Sequence record: NC_011040.1 | From: Escherichia phage BA14 | Length of the DNA: 39,816 nucleotides | Direction: 5' to 3' (one strand) | In this document: piece by piece, positions 2,986 to 38,985 of the stretch | How the letters are laid out: the number at the start of each line of letters is the position of its first letter | Numbering within the stretch: position 1 is the stretch's first letter | Program-made: the position numbers and the translations under genes | The notes under the pieces: generated by a model | Databases searched by the model: none | Told to the model about the DNA's origin: nothing | The model's input: only the letters and a program-made list of their open reading frames with translations

Positions 2986-5637
2986 ATGACTAACGTAATC
3001 AACGCACCAAAGAATGACTTCTCTGACATCGCTAATGCAATCCAGCCGTACAACATTCTGGCTGACCATTACGGTGCACAGCTTGCAGCTACGCAGCTTG
3101 AGTTGGAGCATGAAGCTCACACTGAGGGCGAGAAGCGTTTCCTTAAGGCGATGGAACGTCAAATCAAAGCGGGTGAGTTCGGTGATAACGCAGTGGCTAA
3201 ACCGCTCCTGTCATCCCTCGCACCAAAGTTCATCGAAGCGTGGAACACTTGGTTCACTGAAGTTGAAGCGAAGCGTGGCAAGCGTCCAGTGGCCTACAAT
3301 CTGGTACAGAAGGTTGCACCCGAAGCGGCTGCTTTCATCACACTTAAGGTCACACTCGCTTGCTTGACGAAAGAAGAGTTCACCAACCTGCAATCAGTCG
3401 CTACTAAGATTGGTCGTAGCATTGAAGATGAACTGCGTTTCGGTCGCATCCGTGACGAAGAAGCGAAGCACTTTAAGAACCACGTACAGGAGGCACTGAA
3501 CAAGCGCGTTGGTATCGTCTACAAGAAAGCATTCATGCAAGCCGTAGAAGGCAAGATGTTAGACGCTGGTCAACTGCAAACCAAGTGGACTACATGGACA
3601 CCTGAAGAATCAATTCACGTTGGTGTGCGCATGTTGGAACTGCTCATCGGGTCTACTGGTCTCGTTGAGTTACACCGACCGTTTGCTGGTAACGTTGAGA
3701 AGGATGGCGAGTACATTCAACTGACCGAACAATACGTTGACCTGTTATCTAAGCGTGCTGGTGCACTGGCTGCAATTGCTCCGATGTACCAACCATGTGT
3801 AGTTCCTCCGAAGCCTTGGACGAGTCCGGTCGGTGGTGGCTATTGGGCTGCTGGTCGCAAGCCTCTCTCTCTGGTTCGCACTGGTAGCAAGAAGGGACTT
3901 GAGCGTTACAACGATGTGTATATGCCTGAAGTTTACAAGGCGGTGAACATCGCACAGAATACTCCTTGGAAGATTAACAAGAAGGTTCTGGCAGTGGTCA
4001 ACGAGATTGTGAACTGGAAGCATTGCCCGGTTGACGATGTACCTGCTCTCGAACGTGGTGAACTGCCTATCAAACCTGAAGACATCGACACGAACGAAGC
4101 GGCTCTGAAAGCGTGGAAGAAAGCGGCCTCCGCAATCTATCGCAAAGAGAAAGCACGAGTTTCTCGCCGCATGAGCATGGAGTTCATGTTAGGTCAGGCC
4201 AATAAGTTCGCACAGTTCAAAGCTATCTGGTTCCCGATGAATATGGACTGGCGCGGTCGAGTGTATGCGGTCCCAATGTTTAACCCGCAAGGCAACGACA
4301 TGACCAAAGGCTTGCTGACGCTCGCTAAAGGTAAACCAATCGGTGTCGATGGGTACTACTGGCTGAAGATTCACGGTGCTAACACTGCTGGTGTGGACAA
4401 GGTGGACTTCGCTGAACGTATCAAGTTCATTGATGATAACCATGAGAACATCATGAGCGTTGCGGCTGACCCTATCGCTAACACTTGGTGGGCTGAACAA
4501 GATTCTCCGTTCTGCTTCCTCGCATTCTGCTTTGAGTATGCAGGAGTCCAGCACCACGGGATGAAATACAACTGCTCTCTTCCGCTGGCGTTTGATGGTA
4601 GCTGCTCCGGTATTCAGCACTTCTCCGCAATGCTTCGTGATGAAATTGGTGGTCGCGCTGTTAACTTACTGCCGAGCAAGGAAGTCCAAGACATCTACCG
4701 CATCGTAGCGGAACGTGTCAACGAGATTCTGAAGCAAGATGTAATCAATGGCACCGACAACGAAGTCGAAATCGTGACCAATAAGGACACTGGCGAAATC
4801 ACTGAGAAGCTCAAGCTGGGAACTAAGGAACTGGCTGGTCAATGGTTAGCATACGGTGTTACTCGTAAGGTGACTAAGCGTTCCGTTATGACCTTGGCGT
4901 ATGGTTCCAAAGAGTACGGCTTCCGTGACCAAGTGCTAGAGGATACCATTCAGCCAGCTATCGACGATGGCAAGGGCTTGATGTTCACTCAACCGAACCA
5001 AGCGGCTGGCTACATGGCTAAACTGATTTGGAACGCAGTAACGGTGACAGTGGTCGCAGCGGTTGAAGCAATGAACTGGCTGAAGTCTGCGGCTAAACTT
5101 CTGGCTGCTGAAGTAAAGGACAAGAAGACCAAAGAGGTTCTCCGTAAGCGCTGTGCGGTACATTGGGTTACTCCTGATGGCTTCCCGGTCTGGCAGGAAT
5201 ACAAGAAGCCAGTACAGACCCGCTTGAACCTGATGTTCTTAGGCCAGATTCGTCTACAGCCTACCGTGAACACCAACAAGGATAGCGGAATTGACGCACG
5301 TAAGCAGGAGTCAGGCATTGCACCTAACTTTGTCCACTCAATGGATGGTAGCCACCTCCGCATGACCGTGGTGCGCTCCTATGAGGTCTACGGTGTGGAA
5401 TCGTTCGCACTGATTCACGACTCCTTTGGTACTATCCCTGCTGATGCTGGCAACCTGTTCAAAGCAGTGCGTGAAACGATGGTCAACACTTACGAAGAGA
5501 ACGATGTACTTGCAGACTTCTATGAGCAATTTGCTGACCAGTTGCACGAATCACAGCTTGACAAGATGCCTGAGATGCCAGCTAAAGGTTCTCTGGACCT
5601 GCAAGAAATCCTGAAGTCAGACTTTGCGTTTGCCTAA
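2986..5637 (+). CDS. 1: Single-subunit DNA-directed RNA polymerase (gp1)
   Basis: 883 aa, near-collinear with T7 RNAP as I recall it (e.g. AIWFPMNMDWRGRVYAV, FDGSCSGIQHFSAML, specificity-loop region QPTVNTNKDSGIDARKQESG, C-terminal FAFA). Confidence 0.98.
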   Translation: MTNVINAPKNDFSDIANAIQPYNILADHYGAQLAATQLELEHEAHTEGEKRFLKAMERQIKAGEFGDNAVAKPLLSSLAPKFIEAWNTWFTEVEAKRGKRPVAYNLVQKVAPEAAAFITLKVTLACLTKEEFTNLQSVATKIGRSIEDELRFGRIRDEEAKHFKNHVQEALNKRVGIVYKKAFMQAVEGKMLDAGQLQTKWTTWTPEESIHVGVRMLELLIGSTGLVELHRPFAGNVEKDGEYIQLTEQYVDLLSKRAGALAAIAPMYQPCVVPPKPWTSPVGGGYWAAGRKPLSLVRTGSKKGLERYNDVYMPEVYKAVNIAQNTPWKINKKVLAVVNEIVNWKHCPVDDVPALERGELPIKPEDIDTNEAALKAWKKAASAIYRKEKARVSRRMSMEFMLGQANKFAQFKAIWFPMNMDWRGRVYAVPMFNPQGNDMTKGLLTLAKGKPIGVDGYYWLKIHGANTAGVDKVDFAERIKFIDDNHENIMSVAADPIANTWWAEQDSPFCFLAFCFEYAGVQHHGMKYNCSLPLAFDGSCSGIQHFSAMLRDEIGGRAVNLLPSKEVQDIYRIVAERVNEILKQDVINGTDNEVEIVTNKDTGEITEKLKLGTKELAGQWLAYGVTRKVTKRSVMTLAYGSKEYGFRDQVLEDTIQPAIDDGKGLMFTQPNQAAGYMAKLIWNAVTVTVVAAVEAMNWLKSAAKLLAAEVKDKKTKEVLRKRCAVHWVTPDGFPVWQEYKKPVQTRLNLMFLGQIRLQPTVNTNKDSGIDARKQESGIAPNFVHSMDGSHLRMTVVRSYEVYGVESFALIHDSFGTIPADAGNLFKAVRETMVNTYEENDVLADFYEQFADQLHESQLDKMPEMPAKGSLDLQEILKSDFAFA

Positions 5638-8130: not shown

Positions 8131-8150
8131 TACGACTCACCTATGGAGGA
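8128..8150 (+). promoter_or_regulatory. Phage RNAP promoter-like sequence with altered -4 to -1 (TAATACGACTCACctatGGAGGA)
   Basis: Perfect -17 to -5 match, but four substitutions in the -4 to -1 melting region. Confidence 0.4.
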
Positions 8151-8157
8151 AACACTT

Positions 8158-8421
8158 ATGTTACGACTACACTTCAACAAATCAAATGGCATCTTCTCTG
8201 CCCGTGGCGCTGACCGTTCAACCGTTCTGGCCTCTGAGAAACACGCAGTCATTCCTAAAGTGCTTGGCTCGACCATTGAGTTGGCACCTCGTGTTCACGC
8301 TGTGATTACGACTGGCTTATATAAAGAAGCGACCACTGGCTCCCGGCCTTTCATTCCGGTTCTCGTCACCCGTTTCCCTAAAGTCCGTCTGGTGATTGCA
8401 CGTATCAAGGAGGTGTTCTAA
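8158..8421 (+). CDS. Hypothetical protein (gene 1.6 position)
   Basis: 87 aa from ATG 8158 with RBS GGAGGAAAC; the longer ORF-track start at 8143 lies inside the promoter and lacks an RBS. Confidence 0.6.
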   Translation: MLRLHFNKSNGIFSARGADRSTVLASEKHAVIPKVLGSTIELAPRVHAVITTGLYKEATTGSRPFIPVLVTRFPKVRLVIARIKEVF

Positions 8422-10740: not shown

Positions 10741-10830
10741 ATGATGATTATTCATGAGATGGGCATGTACGATATGATTTACCGCTGTGTATTCGTTCTG
10801 GCATTGACCTATATCTTAACTCGTAAGTAA
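10741..10830 (+). CDS. Hypothetical 29-aa hydrophobic peptide
   Basis: ORF MMIIHEMGMYDMIYRCVFVLALTYILTRK starting 5 nt after the amidase stop; weak RBS. Confidence 0.35.
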   Translation: MMIIHEMGMYDMIYRCVFVLALTYILTRK

Positions 10831-10850
10831 TAGAACTCACTATGGGAGAG
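10828..10850 (+). promoter_or_regulatory. Phage RNAP promoter TAATAGAACTCACTATGGGAGAG
   Basis: T7-family core with G at -1; transcript starts with a GGGAGA...TCTCCC stem-loop. Confidence 0.65.
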
Positions 10851-13263: not shown

Positions 13264-13566
13264 ATGGCTATTAAATTCCCCGGCAATACCATCCGTCTGT
13301 CCGATACCGTTGACCAGTATGCTCGTCGAGTGCACATCAACGTCCGTAATGGCAAGGTCACTCTGGTCTACCGTTGGAAAGACCATAAGTCCACCAAGGC
13401 GCACACACAGCGTGTAACTCTGGATGATACACAGGCAGGTCGTCTGCTGGCTTCCGTTGCTGTAGCCGCTACTGTGGCTGTAGGTGAAGACAAGGTTCGT
13501 GGTGTCCTGCTCGGTAAGACCGTCGAAGCTGAGGGCAACATGCTGGCTGAGAAGTCTGAAATCTAA
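13264..13566 (+). CDS. Hypothetical protein (gene 4.5 position)
   Basis: 100-aa ORF with upstream AGGAG; position between 4.3 and the R4.7/phi4.7 elements. Confidence 0.55.
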   Translation: MAIKFPGNTIRLSDTVDQYARRVHINVRNGKVTLVYRWKDHKSTKAHTQRVTLDDTQAGRLLASVAVAATVAVGEDKVRGVLLGKTVEAEGNMLAEKSEI

Positions 13567-13570
13567 AAGA

Positions 13571-13611
13571 GTTAAACTAAAGGTCATCTCCGGGTGGCCT
13601 TCGTGATTAAC
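13571..13611 (+). promoter_or_regulatory. RNase III-type processing hairpin (R4.7 position)
   Basis: GTTAAACTAAAGGTCATctccgGGTGGCCTTCGTGATTAAC, third copy of the 6301/6821 element, immediately upstream of a phage promoter. Confidence 0.6.
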
Positions 13612-13624
13612 TTTTGTATGAAAA

Positions 13625-13647
13625 CTATTCAACTCACTAATGGGAGA
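13625..13647 (+). promoter_or_regulatory. Phage RNAP promoter (ctattcAACTCACTAATGGGAGA)
   Basis: Core ACTCACTAATGGGAGA with degenerate upstream half; 9 nt upstream of the next ATG. Confidence 0.6.
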
Positions 13648-13655
13648 ACAACACT

Positions 13656-14072
13656 ATGCGTAATCGTAATGTAATCGAAGCTGAAATCTCTAAGCTGCAA
13701 ACTGAACTGGCTGATGTCAAAGAGTATGAATGTGCTCGTGACTCTGCGGTACACATCCTGAAGAACTTAGGGTGGACTCGCTCCCGTGGTCAATGGGTGA
13801 AACCTAAAGCCACTGGCGGTAGCGTTGGCTGTCAGACCTTTGATGCAAACAAGATGACTCACCTTAAGGCTGGGGACTTCTGCACCTTCACCAGCAACGC
13901 AGACATCTGGTATGTCCGTAAGGTCGAAGGGACAGACATTTGGTGCTCCCGTGTGACACGCATTGATGCAATGGGTACAGTCGCTGGGATTCAGTATCAC
14001 AAGATGAACCACAAGAACCTGCGAGTGATTGACCCGAAGAACTTCATGGGCTATCGCCGTTCAACATTTTAA
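13656..14072 (+). CDS. Hypothetical protein (gene 4.7 position)
   Basis: 138-aa ORF directly after the promoter; size and position as T7 gp4.7. Confidence 0.65.
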   Translation: MRNRNVIEAEISKLQTELADVKEYECARDSAVHILKNLGWTRSRGQWVKPKATGGSVGCQTFDANKMTHLKAGDFCTFTSNADIWYVRKVEGTDIWCSRVTRIDAMGTVAGIQYHKMNHKNLRVIDPKNFMGYRRSTF

Positions 14073-14101
14073 TAAATAAACACACAGAAGGAGATACTAC
14101 C

Positions 14102-14536
14102 GTGCATAAGTCTACTAAGATTCAGACGGTTGAATCCTTACTGTCTCGCACGGTTAGTGTTGAGGGCTGCTTGGAGTGGACAGGTTCCACAAGAGGTGGT
14201 TATGGTAGGGTGACAACTCAAGGAAAAGGATGGACAGTCATACGTTTAATTTGGACTCTTCAACACGGAGAGATACCAGAAGGTAACGTTGTACGCCACA
14301 CCTGCGACAACCCTAAGTGCTGCAACCCTGAACACCTTGTTGTAGGTACTCAAGGCGACAACATGCAGGATAGGTTTAACAGAGGGCGCTACTCGCTATT
14401 TCCACTGCCAAGTATGGTGGAAGCTCTTATCTCGCGTGGAATATCCCAAGCAAGTATTGCTGGATTCTTCTGCGTTAACCAAGGCCACATCTCTCGCATC
14501 CATCGTGGGGAGTATCGAGGTGCAAAGTGCTGTTAA
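14102..14536 (+). CDS. HNH homing endonuclease
   Basis: 144 aa from GTG 14102 (RBS GAAGGAGA 7 nt upstream); HNH signature RHTCDNPKCCNPEHLVVGTQGDNMQD. Confidence 0.85.
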   Translation: MHKSTKIQTVESLLSRTVSVEGCLEWTGSTRGGYGRVTTQGKGWTVIRLIWTLQHGEIPEGNVVRHTCDNPKCCNPEHLVVGTQGDNMQDRFNRGRYSLFPLPSMVEALISRGISQASIAGFFCVNQGHISRIHRGEYRGAKCC

Positions 14537-16641
14537 GTGATATTGAAACAAATGGTCTATTACACAATGTCTCGCAGTTTCACTGTGCGGTGACTTACGA
14601 CTACACAACTGACCAGTACATCCGTTATCGACCTGATGACTTTGGGGCGTACATTGATGCACTCGAAGCCGAGGTTGCTCGTGGTGGTCTCATTGTGTTC
14701 CATAATGGTCACAAGTATGACATCCCGGTAATCGAGTTGCTCGCCAAGAAACTGTTAGGCCGTGACGTTAAGTTCCCGAAAGAGAACGTACTGGATACCC
14801 TCGTGATGTCCCGCTTGATTTACTCTAACATCAAAGACACCGATGCTGGTCTGCTTCGTGCTGGCAAGCTGCCGGGTAAACGCTTTGGTTCCCACGCTCT
14901 GGAGGCTTGGGGCTATCGCTTAGGCGAAATGAAGGGTGAGTACAAGGACGACTTCAAGGCTTCACTGGCTGAGTCTGGTGAAGAATACGTTGATGGGATG
15001 GAGTGGTTGCTGTTCAACGAAGACATGATGGAATATAACGTTCAAGACGTTGTAGTAACCAAGGCTCTCTTCGAGAAACTTTGTAGCAACACATTCTATT
15101 TCCCTAACGAGACACCTGCTGGAAGCACAGAAGCAGAACGTTTCTGGAATGGTAGCCTTGAGGCTGTCAAACTGGAACACGATGCTGCATGGTTGTTAGC
15201 CAAGATGGAACGTAACGGTTTCCCTATTGACATCAAGTCCTTAGAGAATCTCTACGCTGAACTGGCTGGTCGCCGTGGTGAACTGCTGGTCGAACTGACC
15301 AACACTTTCGGTACGTGGTATCAGGCCAAGGGTGGCGTAGAAGCATTCCGTCACCCACGAACTGGTAAGCCTCTCACTAAGTATCCTCGTGTGAAGTATC
15401 CGAAACAGGGTGGCATCTTCAAGAAGCCGAAGAACAAGAAGCAACGTGAAGGTCTGGAACCCTGTGAACTGGACACTCGTGATTACGTAGAGGGCGCACC
15501 TTACACGCCTGTAGAGCACGTTGTGTTTAACCCTGCTAGTCGTGACCACATCACTCGTGTGCTTACCAAAGCTGGCTGGGTGCCCGTTGAGTTCACTCCT
15601 AGTGGTGCACCAAAGGTAGACGATGAAGTCTTAGAGCACGTTAAGGTAGACGACCCTGATGCACAGCGTTGCATTGAGTTGATTAAAGAATACCTTATGA
15701 TTCAGAAACGTATCGGTCAGGTTGCTGAAGGTGATAACGGCTGGCTCCGAATGATTGGAGAAGATGGTCGTATTCACGGTAGCGTTAACCCGAACGGTGC
15801 GGTAACTGGACGTGCAACTCATAGCTTCCCTAACGTGGCACAGGTGCCTTCTATCCGTGCTGCTTATGGTGAACCTTGCCGTGCTGCTTTCGGTGCCGAG
15901 CACAACATGAAAGACGGTAAGCCAGACCCTTGGATTCAAGTTGGTGTGGATGCGTCCGGCCTTGAGCTACGTTGCTTGGGTCACTTCATGTATCGTTATG
16001 ATGAAGGCGAGTACGTTGAGACAATCCTAACGGGTGACATCCATACGAAGAACCAGATGGCTGCGGGTCTACCGACTCGTGACAACGCCAAGACGTTTAT
16101 CTATGGATTCCTCTATGGTGCTGGTGCTGCGAAGATTGGACAGATTGTTGGTGGTACTGCCGAAGATGGTAAGCGACTCATCAAGAACTTCCTTGAGCAA
16201 ACTCCGGCTATCGCTGCGTTACGTGAAGCAATCACAGGGACACTCGTCAAGGACTCCAAGTGGGTTGGCGGCGAACAGAAAGTAACTTGGAAGCGCCGTT
16301 GGGTTCGTGGCTTGGATGGTCGTAAAGTCCACGTCCGTAGTCCTCACGCTGCGTTGAACACCTTGTTGCAGTCTGCTGGTGCACTTATTTGTAAACTGTG
16401 GATTGTCGAGACTGAACGTCTGTTACTGGAAGCTGGCCTGAAGCATGGCTGGGATGGTGACTTTGCATACATGGCTTGGGTACACGATGAAATTCAGGTC
16501 GCTGCAAGGACTCAAGAGATTGCCGATAAGATTGTCGAGTTGGCACAGCAAGCAATGCGTAATGTGGGAGACCACTTTAATTTTAGATGTCAGTTAGATA
16601 CCGAAGGTAAGACTGGCGCAAACTGGAAAGATTGTCACTAA
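14527..16641 (+). CDS. 5: DNA polymerase with 3'-5' exonuclease (gp5)
   Basis: 704 aa; N-terminal exo motif LLSDIETNG, thioredoxin-binding region, and polymerase motifs (YGFLYGAG, VHDEIQV) collinear with T7 gp5; apparent GTG start overlapping the HNH stop. Confidence 0.97.
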   Translation: MLLSDIETNGLLHNVSQFHCAVTYDYTTDQYIRYRPDDFGAYIDALEAEVARGGLIVFHNGHKYDIPVIELLAKKLLGRDVKFPKENVLDTLVMSRLIYSNIKDTDAGLLRAGKLPGKRFGSHALEAWGYRLGEMKGEYKDDFKASLAESGEEYVDGMEWLLFNEDMMEYNVQDVVVTKALFEKLCSNTFYFPNETPAGSTEAERFWNGSLEAVKLEHDAAWLLAKMERNGFPIDIKSLENLYAELAGRRGELLVELTNTFGTWYQAKGGVEAFRHPRTGKPLTKYPRVKYPKQGGIFKKPKNKKQREGLEPCELDTRDYVEGAPYTPVEHVVFNPASRDHITRVLTKAGWVPVEFTPSGAPKVDDEVLEHVKVDDPDAQRCIELIKEYLMIQKRIGQVAEGDNGWLRMIGEDGRIHGSVNPNGAVTGRATHSFPNVAQVPSIRAAYGEPCRAAFGAEHNMKDGKPDPWIQVGVDASGLELRCLGHFMYRYDEGEYVETILTGDIHTKNQMAAGLPTRDNAKTFIYGFLYGAGAAKIGQIVGGTAEDGKRLIKNFLEQTPAIAALREAITGTLVKDSKWVGGEQKVTWKRRWVRGLDGRKVHVRSPHAALNTLLQSAGALICKLWIVETERLLLEAGLKHGWDGDFAYMAWVHDEIQVAARTQEIADKIVELAQQAMRNVGDHFNFRCQLDTEGKTGANWKDCH

Positions 16642-36146: not shown

Positions 36147-36209
36147 TATGAATTATCAACACAACTCACGGTGACGCTACGTGAAATCTGAGAAATGGGG
36201 AGGGTAGTT

Positions 36210-36653
36210 ATGCTCAAGAATTTAAAGAGCTACGCCATCGCTGTGGCCTTTGCCTTGGGGATGACCCTTGCGTACAACCACGGCTATGACAAGGCTAACA
36301 CTAAATGGGAACAGGAGGTGCACAATGAGTACGTTAAGAAAGTTGAGGCGACTGCGGATAAACAGGCTGCTCTCAATGAAGTCTCACGACAATACCAAGA
36401 AGACCTTGCGGCGCTGGAAGGCAGCACTGATAGGGTCATTAATGATTTGCGTAACGATGGTAAGCGGCTGCGTGTCAAACTATCAGCCACCTCACGAGAA
36501 CTCCAAGCTAACGGTGGATGCCTCGTTGATGGTCGAGCCGAACTTGACGAAGAGTTTAGTAAGCGTCTTATCGGAGTAACTCAAAGAGGGGATGCGTGGA
36601 TTAAAGCGCTCCAAAATACAATAACTGAAATGCAATCTAAGAAGGAGAAATAA
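36210..36653 (+). CDS. 18.5: Inner-membrane spanin Rz (gp18.5)
   Basis: 147 aa from ATG 36210 (RBS GGGGAGGG); N-terminal TM helix and KWEQEVHNEYVKKVEA, YQEDLAALEGSTDR match T7 gp18.5. Confidence 0.9.
   Translation: MLKNLKSYAIAVAFALGMTLAYNHGYDKANTKWEQEVHNEYVKKVEATADKQAALNEVSRQYQEDLAALEGSTDRVINDLRNDGKRLRVKLSATSRELQANGGCLVDGRAELDEEFSKRLIGVTQRGDAWIKALQNTITEMQSKKEK
36325..36579 (+). CDS. 18.7: Outer-membrane lipoprotein spanin Rz1 (gp18.7), embedded in +1 frame of 18.5
   Basis: 84 aa from ATG 36325 (RBS AGGAGGTG); signal/lipobox LMICVTMVSGC and C-terminal DASLMVEPNLT as in T7 gp18.7. Confidence 0.85.
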   Translation: MSTLRKLRRLRINRLLSMKSHDNTKKTLRRWKAALIGSLMICVTMVSGCVSNYQPPHENSKLTVDASLMVEPNLTKSLVSVLSE

Positions 36654-36654
36654 T

Positions 36655-37212
36655 ATGGCTACTACAAACTCAAGAACCCGCACACTCTGGACCATCAATG
36701 GTCGCTCACCAGACAGTCGTGATGTGTATGACCACAACAATATTGGCCTTCGTGTTGGGCGTATCGACATCCCAGCTTCGGAGATGGTTAAGGTTGAGGG
36801 CTACTCTAAGGTTGAATACATTATCCAACTGAGTGATGGCACCACTGAGCAACATGCTACGTTCGAGACCCTTATGTCCACTTGGGGTGGCTCCGTCGAG
36901 TCTAAACCGGGTAGCGGGTTCATGACGGTGTTCCTGAATGAGCAAAGCACTGAGCGACTCGGTATGGTTCGAATCGACGTATACAAAGAGTGGACTGGTG
37001 CTGACCCTGAACCTGAAGGTGGTAGGGCTTCCTTAGTTAGTGCAACGCTTTCTGCGTCTGATAGTGCATTTGGTACACAGTTCGTGGATAGCGAAGGGAA
37101 GAGTGCTTCCGTTATGTTCCAACCTAGTGACATCGACGGGGCTGTATCTAAGACCGACACTATCAAGGCTCTTGAGAAGCGCATCGCTGACTTAGAGAAA
37201 GCTGCCAAGTAA
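36655..37212 (+). CDS. Hypothetical late protein, unplaced between spanins and large terminase
   Basis: 185-aa ORF with strong RBS GAAGGAGA; starts 2 nt after the Rz stop; no TM segment; C-terminal amphipathic stretch TIKALEKRIADLEKAAK. Confidence 0.7.
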   Translation: MATTNSRTRTLWTINGRSPDSRDVYDHNNIGLRVGRIDIPASEMVKVEGYSKVEYIIQLSDGTTEQHATFETLMSTWGGSVESKPGSGFMTVFLNEQSTERLGMVRIDVYKEWTGADPEPEGGRASLVSATLSASDSAFGTQFVDSEGKSASVMFQPSDIDGAVSKTDTIKALEKRIADLEKAAK

Positions 37213-37227
37213 CAATAGGAGGCCACA

Positions 37228-38985
37228 ATGTCTACTCAAGCAAACAAGAATGCGCTCATCGTGGCGCAACTTAAGGGTGACTTCGTGGCCTTCCTGTTCG
37301 TCTTATGGAAGGCTCTGAACTTACCTAAACCAACCAAGTGTCAGATTGATATGGCACGTACACTCGCTAACGGCGACCACAAGAAGTTTATCCTTCAGGC
37401 GTTCCGTGGTATCGGCAAGTCCTTTATCACCTGTGCGTTCGTTGTGTGGGTCTTATGGCGTGACCCTCAACTTAAGGTGCTCATTGTGTCTGCCTCTAAG
37501 GAACGTGCGGACGCTAACTCCATCTTCATTAAGAACATCATTGACCTGCTGCCATTCCTCGCTGAGTTGAAACCTCGACCGGGACAGCGTGACTCTGTGA
37601 TTAGCTTCGACGTTGGCTTGGCGAAACCCGACCACTCACCTTCTGTGAAGTCTGTGGGTATCACTGGTCAGTTGACTGGTAGTCGTGCTGACATCATTAT
37701 CGCAGATGACGTTGAGGTTCCCGGCAACAGTTCTACAAGCTCTGCTCGTGAGAAGCTGTGGACACTGGTAACTGAGTTTGCTGCGTTACTTAAGCCGTTA
37801 CCTACCTCTCGCGTTATCTACCTTGGGACACCTCAAACCGAGATGACTCTCTATAAGGAACTTGAGGATAACAAAGGGTACAGCACAGTAATCTGGCCAG
37901 CACAGTATCCACGCAATGACGCTGAGGCTCTCTACTATGGCGACCGACTGGCTCCTATGCTTAAGCAAGAGTATGATGAAGGCTACGAGATTCTTCGTGG
38001 ACAACCTACTGACCCTATTCGATTCGATATGGATGACCTCCGTGAACGTGAACTCGAATATGGCAAAGCTGGCTACACTCTTCAGTTCATGCTCAACCCT
38101 AACCTGTCCGATGCTGAGAAGTACCCGCTGAGGCTCCGTGATGCCATTGTGTGCGCAGTGGACACTGAACGTGCCCCATTGTCCTACCAGTGGTTGCCGA
38201 ACCGTCAGAACCGCAATGAGGAACTTCCTAACGTGGGTCTGAAGGGTGACGACATTCACAGCTTCCATGTGTGTTCCTCTAAGACCGCTGAGTACCAGCA
38301 AAAGATTCTCGTCATTGACCCCTCTGGTCGTGGTAAGGATGAAACGGGTTACGCAGTCCTCTACACCCTGAATGGCTACATCTACTTGATGGAAGTCGGT
38401 GGGTTCCGTGGTGGCTACGATGACCCTACCCTAGAGAAGCTCGCTAAGAAGGCCAAGCAGTGGAAGGTACAGACGGTCGTACACGAGAGTAACTTCGGTG
38501 ATGGTATGTTCGGTAAGGTATTCTCTCCGGTTCTCCTGAAGCACCACAAGTGTGCCTTAGAAGAGATTCGTGCTCGTGGCATGAAGGAGATGCGTATCTG
38601 CGACACTATCGAACCGTTGATGGGCGCACACCGCCTTATCATCCGTGACGAAGTAATCCGTGAGGACTACCAGACCGCTCGTGACCTTGATGGGAAACAT
38701 GATGTTCGCTATAGTGCGTTCTATCAGATGACCCGTATGACTCGTGAGAAGGGCGCTGTGGCACACGATGACCGACTTGATGCTATCGCATTGGGTATCG
38801 AGTTCCTTCGTGAAGGGATGCAGGTGGACTCTAAGGTGGGCGAGGAAGCTATGACACTTGAGTTCCTTGAACACCACATGGAGAAACCTATCATCGGTGG
38901 TGACATGGCTCGTGAGTTAGTGTCTGGAGGTGTGGACATCTACTATGAGGACGATGGCGATGGAGAGTGCTTCATTGAGTGGTAA
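37228..38985 (+). CDS. 19: Terminase large subunit (gp19)
   Basis: 585 aa, RBS TAGGAGG; Walker A-like FRGIGKS and extensive collinearity with T7 gp19. Confidence 0.97.

Follow-up and report, generated by a model that had tools for sequence, protein, structure and literature searches.

A probable free-standing HNH homing endonuclease gene at the DNA polymerase start codon of Escherichia phage BA14

The window analysed here is the complete 39,816-bp genome of the T7-group phage Escherichia phage BA14 (NC_011040.1), in which a small HNH endonuclease gene lies between a homologue of gene 4.7 and gene 5, the DNA polymerase gene (Table 1). The first 25 kb of the window are 90–94% identical to members of Berlinvirus, for example PYPS50, 285P and FE44, and no record in the phage collection covered the HNH/polymerase region at ≥80%. 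Genes 4.7 and 5 are intact on both sides of the HNH cassette: the left-flanking open reading frame (ORF) aligned with gene 4.7 of PYPS50 and BP12A, the Pfam family Phage_T7_4_7 was found in the homologous ORFs of the related loci L008, L009 and L012, and the polymerase ORF is uninterrupted, with 99.7% amino-acid identity to the PYPS50 polymerase.

An initial annotation of the window had described a 144-amino-acid HNH ORF adjoining gene 5, and family searches bore this out, matching the ORF to Pfam HNH_3 (PF13392; E = 2.4e-13, 49.9 bits, above the gathering threshold of 24.8), to zf-His_Me_endon (E = 2e-6) and to PHROG endonuclease families (down to E = 7e-32). An alignment of 39 sequences revealed C23, H66, C68, C73, H78 and D90 as invariant and N87 as near-invariant; the window protein has all of these residues, and catalytic roles may be assigned to H66, N87 and the Cys/His metal-binding set. 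The AlphaFold2 model of the protein (predicted local distance difference test score, pLDDT, 89.8) comprises a beta-rich N-terminal nuclease domain with a beta-beta-alpha-metal fold, followed by three C-terminal helices, and the predicted fold is closest to that of I-HmuI; a phmmer search of PDB sequences with the protein gave no match, the solved I-HmuI structure included. Among intact copies of the gene the ratio of non-synonymous to synonymous divergence (dN/dS) is 0.07–0.19, and the HNH protein is therefore under purifying selection. A tblastn search for paralogues elsewhere in the window recovered only the gene itself. The GTG start and Shine–Dalgarno (SD) sequence that had been proposed for the gene were likewise upheld, the SD being suitably spaced (Table 1) and the homologues beginning at the same codon, as ATG or GTG, and all reading MHK...; a GGAG core precedes this start in 11/11 copies, in the form GGAGATA in the five closest. 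The start of the HNH gene (ATG/GTG-CAT-AAA) is similar to that of gene 4.7 (ATG-CGT-AAA). A terminase-associated HNH factor of the HK97 gp74 type was considered and rejected, as the gene belongs to the DNA-metabolism region of a T7-like genome, flanked by genes 4.7 and 5, and terL lies at 37228–38985.

Table 1. Features of the HNH/polymerase locus; positions refer to the window unless a comparison locus (L number) is named.
Feature	Position	Strand	Remarks
Gene 4.7 homologue (left flank)	13656..14072	+	Stop TAA 14070–14072; ORF list
Decayed native polymerase SD	14073..14076	+	TAAA in the window, GGAG in every empty allele
Retained native spacer TAAACACA	14077..14084	+	Immediately 5′ of the polymerase ATG in empty alleles
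Insert relative to HNH-less Berlinviruses	14085..14526	+	442 bp; BLAST spans and junction alignment
SD of the HNH gene	14089..14093	+	AGGAG, 8 nt before GTG 14102
HNH endonuclease gene, intact	14102..14536	+	GTG start, 144 amino acids, stop TAA 14534–14536
His-Me-finger (HNH_3) nuclease domain	14159..14392	+	Residues ~20–97; Pfam, PHROG, alignment
C-terminal three-helix helix-turn-helix domain, predicted to bind DNA	14408..14512	+	Residues ~103–137
Embedded polymerase translation-initiation region GAGTATCGAGGTGCAAAGTG	14510..14529	+	SD GAGG 14517–14520, GTG 14527–14529
DNA polymerase gene 5	14527..16641	+	GTG start, 704 amino acids; Pfam DNA_pol_A, E = 2e-43
Recoded donor-type polymerase tract	14527..14577	+	21 synonymous differences from empty alleles, 0 amino-acid changes
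Endo VII-type gene, Salmonella phage RN5i1 (Berlinvirus)	L002:1987–2424		Overlaps the polymerase start
Endo VII-type gene, Klebsiella phage HZJ31	L021:1602–2054		Overlaps the polymerase start

The polymerase frame leaves a single choice of start codon. Its upstream in-frame stop is at 14476 and ATG, GTG and TTG are all absent from this frame between that stop and position 14527, so the GTG at 14527 is the only possible start; it necessarily lies 5′ of Asp5 and Glu7. A GAGG motif stands 6 nt before this GTG as the ribosome-binding site, in agreement with the SD and GTG that the initial annotation had given to gene 5. The same GTG was found in 11 related loci, each assembled independently, and is therefore no sequencing error in the window; the RefSeq annotation of Klebsiella phage IME205 also takes it as the polymerase start. 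The N-terminus, MLLSDIE, was said to keep the spacing of the exonuclease motif of T7 (MIVSDIE), and this proved correct on the T7 genome itself (NC_001604; polymerase region AGGAGaaatcaatATG). As had also been noted, the HNH stop codon falls inside the polymerase coding start, and from its position the two ORFs overlap by 10 nt.

The initial annotation had proposed aligning the 4.7–5 junction with HNH-less relatives, and this alignment defined the boundaries of the insertion exactly. Six HNH-less Berlinvirus relatives (BP12A, PYPS50, 285P, FE44, Kvp1 and SWJM-03) share one and the same empty site, TAAGGAGTAAACACA/ATG, within the junction TAA-GGAG-TAAACACA-ATG-TTACTATCCGAC..., where GGAG is the SD. 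The window instead reads TAA-TAAA-TAAACACA-(CAGAAGGAGATACTACC-GTG...HNH...GAGGTGCAAA)-GTG, and because the empty alleles run the native spacer straight into ATG, the insert is the part in parentheses, with its right end exactly at the polymerase start codon. BLAST spans gave the same length, 1,301 nt in the window versus 859 nt in the relatives. At the position of the native SD, locus L008, the cassette of which is about 95–96% identical to that of the window, has TGAG. That the native ATG context was replaced without damage to the enzyme, as had been suggested, agrees with the ATG of the empty alleles and the near-identity of the window and PYPS50 polymerases. The cassette is thus a precise insertion and an unusually clean example of a well-known kind of mobile element. 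An insertion sequence or transposon was excluded by the absence of terminal inverted repeats and target-site duplications, only short chance repeats being present. Similarly, known RNA elements, group I introns among them, were excluded by an Rfam search of 13500–14800, which returned no match at E≤1 and no intron model.

The insertion has placed the initiation signals of the polymerase inside the HNH gene, the last 17 nt of which hold the sole SD and start codon available to the polymerase. The window shares GAGTATCGAGGTGC without variation with each of the 12 related copies for which a 3′ end was read, be they full-length, reduced to a remnant or only a scar, and 11 of these 12 have the GTG polymerase start, the exception being the frameshifted copy of L009, with ATG. 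Every empty or otherwise-occupied locus has an ATG polymerase start. The 3′-terminal 21-nt stretch is also the most conserved part of the HNH gene (18/21 columns invariant, versus 44% overall), whereas synonymous sites elsewhere in the gene are near saturation (proportion of synonymous differences, pS, 0.6–0.85), and the 3′ end is therefore constrained at the nucleotide level. Such a constraint is as expected if the end of the HNH gene serves as the translation-initiation region of the polymerase. The extent of the overlap itself varies, being GTGA only in L011. Sigma-70 promoters and intrinsic terminators in the cassette were not more numerous than in shuffled sequence.

Comparison of the polymerase genes pointed to the extent of the unit that had moved. 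The window and PYPS50 differ at 75 of 2,115 polymerase nucleotides, of which 21, all synonymous, fall in nt 1–51 and 54 in the other 2,061 nt; the 60 nt that follow the tract hold 0 differences, and no other 54-nt stretch holds more than 8. Nucleotides 1–51 are of the type of the HNH-bearing lineage represented by L009 (5 differences from L009), whereas nt 52–300 are of the PYPS50 type (6 differences from PYPS50, 42 from L009), and the 5′ end of the L008 polymerase has the same switch from donor to recipient. The switch after nt 51 is a gene-conversion breakpoint: the cassette arrived with 51 nt of donor-type sequence, and the exchange was resolved in the first long identical stretch of the polymerase gene. 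On the other side, the near-identical L008 cassette adjoins a different gene 4.7 allele (17–36 differences per 60 nt from the window over the last 300 nt), and the cassette is therefore unlinked from its left flank. From the breakpoint and the unlinked gene 4.7 together it follows that the mobile unit is the cassette plus ~50 nt of polymerase 5′ sequence.

Two further patterns of divergence were seen at the locus. The window HNH gene has a mosaic structure, in which the first ~250 nt match the L008 copy (L008:1096–1530) without a difference, while the last ~110 nt together with polymerase nt 1–51 are nearly identical to the frameshifted L009 copy (L009:3001–3444) and have many differences from L008. 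Separately, the HNH-less Berlinvirus polymerases (L001, L014–L019) diverge by 0–2% over nt 1–300 versus 3–9% over nt 300–1800, a contrast for which a sweep, or recombination occurring often at the 5′ end, may be responsible.

The slot at the polymerase start also holds homologues of the HNH gene, at 63–95% nucleotide identity, in metagenomic T7-like contigs and in Przondovirus phages of Klebsiella. The closest database homologues (66–70% amino-acid identity) lie directly 5′ of the polymerase in Klebsiella Przondovirus phages, the junction being present in 35 Klebsiella phage records, and metagenomic T7-like homologues (80–96% amino-acid identity) were found at seven loci, always in this slot. 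A peptide scan of IMG/VR returned the IME205 genome only, and the junction pattern hit two genuine loci there, plus three unrelated genes by chance. The left-hand neighbour of the HNH gene is gene 4.7 in the window, L008, L009, L011 and L012; in L006, L007, L010 and L013 it is gene 4.5, gene 4.7 being absent, so that across the family the left junction is variable and the right junction constant. A ~60-nt intergenic block, ACTCAAGGTCATTACTATATGTAGTGGCCTTTATGATTATCA.ACACAACATAT (L003:1436–1500; aligned with L020–L023, L006 and L012), is nearly invariant before whichever gene comes after gene 4.5, be it gene 4.7, the HNH gene or an Endo VII-type gene; it holds a hairpin-like AAGGTCA...TGGCCTT, and we take it to be a possible counterpart of the T7 R4.7 RNase III site.

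Several relatives carry the HNH gene in stages of decay. The copies in L009 and L012 have each lost 1 nt, which shifts the HNH frame; an internal deletion in p9676, SH-Kp 152410 and RCIP0064 has left an in-frame remnant of 66 amino acids; and in vB_KpnP_23 the whole HNH gene has been deleted between TATTGAGG and TATCGAGG, the polymerase starting from the kept CGAGGTGCAAA-GTG. Every decayed form retains the 3′ piece of the HNH gene. A cycle of invasion, decay and loss is thus visible among the relatives. In two genera the slot is filled by a gene of Endo VII type (phrog_2633, E = 1e-41 to 1e-44) that is unrelated to the HNH gene (Table 1). Codons 10–17 of the RN5i1 polymerase (GGTCTATTACATAATGTCTCGCAA) are common to the recoded tract of the HNH-bearing alleles, which suggests either replacement of one occupant by the other or a common target.

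The reading that we favour, at a probability of about 75%, takes the cassette for a homing endonuclease gene (HEG) that is free-standing, belongs to the HNH_3, I-HmuI-like type and sits exactly where the essential polymerase gene of this Berlinvirus-like phage begins. The initial annotation had likewise seen a free-standing homing endonuclease here, and the patchy presence of the gene, the clean empty site, the conversion breakpoint, the unlinked left flank and the decayed copies speak for it. On comparative grounds, the polymerase locus would be its target and the empty allele its substrate, with copying by repair, immunity through the recoded tract and translational coupling as presumed further properties. 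In the mechanism that we propose, the phage RNA polymerase would transcribe the HNH gene together with genes 4.7 and 5, and the SD and GTG of the HNH gene would support a low level of its translation. During mixed infection, the HNH protein would bind the conserved empty allele of a related phage through its helix-turn-helix domain and nick or cut it somewhere between ~-15 and +51 of the polymerase start. The lesion would then be repaired from the HNH-bearing genome by recombination, which would copy the cassette and the adjacent tract into the empty allele, while the insertion and the recoded tract would both shield the resident allele. The polymerase would be translated from the SD and GTG borne by the HEG, either by direct initiation or by re-initiation after the HNH stop codon 7 nt downstream. 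A clean loss of the HEG would for this reason be difficult, with remnants and scars persisting in its place.

Several observations weigh against parts of this scheme. Amino-acid identities between lineages for the HNH protein and the polymerase (67/74, 85/83 and 81/89%) indicate broadly parallel divergence, and long co-residence with losses is therefore at least as plausible as frequent homing; only L011, with 80% identity in HNH and 65% in the polymerase, looks clearly horizontal. About 10 nt of the recoding are forced by the ORF overlap (TTA-AGT, for example, embeds the TAA stop), and the 51-nt tract may be hitch-hiking donor sequence and not an immunity determinant. Enzymes of the I-HmuI type are nickases able to cut both alleles, and immunity may therefore not apply at all. 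Invariance of the empty site had to be dropped as evidence for the target, since 0 differences in 51 nt is not unusual where empty alleles diverge by only 1–2% over the first 300 nt of the polymerase gene. RNA hairpins masking the HNH or polymerase start, as in the regulation of T4 HEGs, were also rejected: fold z-scores around both start sites were -0.6 to +1.2, that is, no significant RNA structure was found there.

A more specific idea, which we hold tentatively and rate at somewhat under an even chance, is that the HEG has become hard to lose, in an addiction-like manner, by capturing the translation initiation of an essential gene in at least two T7-group genera. According to this idea, the native ATG gave way to another start and the native SD, left without a start codon to serve, has since decayed, leaving the working SD and GTG only in the last codons of the endonuclease gene, so that dead copies and full deletions alike must keep a 17-nt piece, which is the scar of vB_KpnP_23. 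The conserved GTG and recoded first codons would at the same time act as an immunity determinant, possibly also against the Endo VII-type competitor.

Besides homing, the gene might be retained for a benefit to the phage, such as cutting the genomes of co-infecting competitors (interference competition, marker exclusion), degrading host DNA or setting polymerase dosage through the GTG and coupling. The strong purifying selection (dN/dS 0.07–0.19), the broad co-divergence of HNH gene and polymerase across genera and the sharing of the slot by two unrelated nuclease families would all fit such a benefit, as would the persistence of the GTG in 11 of 12 copies although a change of AAG to AAA, synonymous in the HNH frame, gives ATG. 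However, the HNH gene was found in 0 of 93 Berlinvirus records matched, so that nearly all Berlinviruses do without it, most of the ~386 Klebsiella Przondoviruses lack it (~35 carry it), and frameshifted, internally deleted and fully deleted copies in otherwise complete genomes mark the gene as dispensable. We consider retention for such a benefit unlikely, noting that it overlaps with homing and does not exclude it.

Still less probable in our judgement is that the window copy is an inactive relic, kept only for the ribosome-binding site and start codon at its 3′ end. Relatives with remnants and a scar do keep this end only, the 3′ third of the window gene has almost the same DNA sequence as the frameshifted L009 copy, and the weak GTG start suggests low HNH expression, but the ORF is full length and carries C23, H66, C68, C73, H78, D90 and the near-invariant N87, the HNH fold is predicted with high confidence, and comparison with the L008 copy gave a proportion of non-synonymous differences (pN) of 0.019 against a pS of 0.139. 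Finally, gene 5 is read in the -1 frame with respect to the HNH gene and an A-AAG motif (14524–14527) stands just 3′ of GAGG, an arrangement that could be taken for a programmed -1 ribosomal frameshift at GCA-AAG producing an HNH–polymerase fusion, instead of or besides initiation at GTG. This we regard as scarcely credible: the slip motif is not conserved (relatives have GCT-AAG, GCC-AAG or GCA-CAG), a canonical X-XXY-YYZ heptamer and a significant downstream structure are absent, the L011 overlap comprises only GTGA, and the vB_KpnP_23 scar uses the same SD and GTG without any upstream ORF.

Several known systems come close to this one. With I-HmuI and I-HmuII of Bacillus phages SPO1 and SP82 (structure 1U3E) it shares a His-Me-finger nuclease followed by a C-terminal helix-turn-helix and the association with a phage DNA polymerase, but the genes of those enzymes sit in group I introns that interrupt the polymerase coding sequence, whereas the window gene is free-standing, 5′ of the start codon and without an intron; its resemblance to the I-HmuI family is in predicted fold and architecture only. 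In related phages different endonucleases compete for one polymerase site, a situation paralleled here by the HNH_3 and Endo VII-type occupants. The free-standing HEGs of T-even phages (seg/mob, for example SegF, SegG and MobE) are intergenic, lie beside conserved essential genes, are patchy among relatives, are inherited with co-conversion of flanking sequence and have ORFs that overlap their neighbours, suggesting translational coupling (PMC2988022). The window gene has all these traits, although the T-even genes belong to another nuclease subfamily and another phage group, and in T4 it is the start of the HEG that overlaps the upstream gene whereas here it is the 3′ end of the HEG that runs into a downstream essential gene and provides the SD and start codon of that gene. 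The nearest counterpart in position, the HNH gene of Klebsiella Przondoviruses (for example IME205 HOR12_gp22, YP_009785879, already annotated as an HNH endonuclease), is of the same family (66–69% amino-acid and 63% nucleotide identity) and has the same right junction GAGTATCGAGGTGCAAAGTG with the GTG polymerase start; it differs in genus, in a shorter recoded tract (~24 nt) and in replacing gene 4.7, directly after the conserved 4.5–4.7 intergenic region, whereas the window gene follows an intact gene 4.7. In the T7-group Hafnia phage Ca (Kayfunavirus), a HEG lies between a lysis gene and terL as a ~400-bp HNH cassette with a GTG start that overlaps the start of an essential gene, and genomes with and without it co-exist (PMC8861465). 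Phage group, cassette size, GTG start and overlap of a downstream essential start are common to that cassette and the window's, but its slot is at the terminase and its downstream gene keeps ATG. The RN5i1 and HZJ31 occupants are of the kind of the Endo VII-motif homing endonucleases (F-CphI type, PMC6083498) and are unrelated in sequence to the window gene.

Clustering of HEGs at essential genes, DNA polymerase included, is documented (PMC10448857; PMC2988022). Free-standing HEGs beside essential phage genes being well known, the finding itself is unsurprising; the noteworthy twist is the capture of an essential gene's initiation signals. Our literature search found no paper on this HNH family or on the polymerase-start slot, only general treatments and the analogous terL case, and within the collections searched the window is the first Berlinvirus-type genome with the HNH gene.

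Other features were observed in the window and its relatives. A 185-amino-acid ORF (36655–37212) lies between an Rz-like gene (36195–36653) and terL, the slot of the HEG in Hafnia phage Ca; Pfam gave no match to this ORF, and its sole hit was phrog_20446 (function unknown). A 92-amino-acid ORF (8143–8421) matches Pfam PF06726, 'Bladder cancer-related protein BC10' (E = 5e-19, 68.8 bits, cut-off 27), an odd family for a T7-group early-region protein, as well as phrog_1777 (function unknown). Relatives have further putative HEGs near the polymerase, none of which occurs in the window: a 2.8-like HNH gene between genes 4 and 4.7 and a 5.3 gene after the polymerase in Kvp1 (L017:2056–2499 and 5084–5464), a 7.7-like gene after 5.7 in FE44 (L016:5610–5851), a gene for an HNH-motif protein after the polymerase in PcCB251 (L019:5108–5443) and an HNH_3 gene after 5.7 in L010 (5797–6164). 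Upstream of gene 4.7, window positions 13629–13650 (CAACTCACTAATGGGAGA) resemble the Kvp1 promoter phi4.7 (ACTCACTAAGGGAGA) with one extra base; a scan with the 21-nt Kvp1 promoter consensus, allowing 3 mismatches, gave a sole match in the window at 10829–10849.

The practical consequences concern annotation and engineering: annotation pipelines should accept a GTG start for gene 5 in HNH-bearing Studiervirinae, and engineers who remove the 'non-essential' HNH gene should keep its last ~17 nt, as polymerase translation would otherwise be lost. For the biology of these phages, the locus offers a complete natural series of empty, intact, frameshifted, internally deleted and scar alleles in genetically tractable T7-type phages, with a mobile unit mapped exactly as a 442-bp insert plus a 51-nt conversion tract. 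This series could address how targets at gene starts are chosen, how such elements protect themselves and whether capture of a ribosome-binding site and start codon slows the loss of the element.

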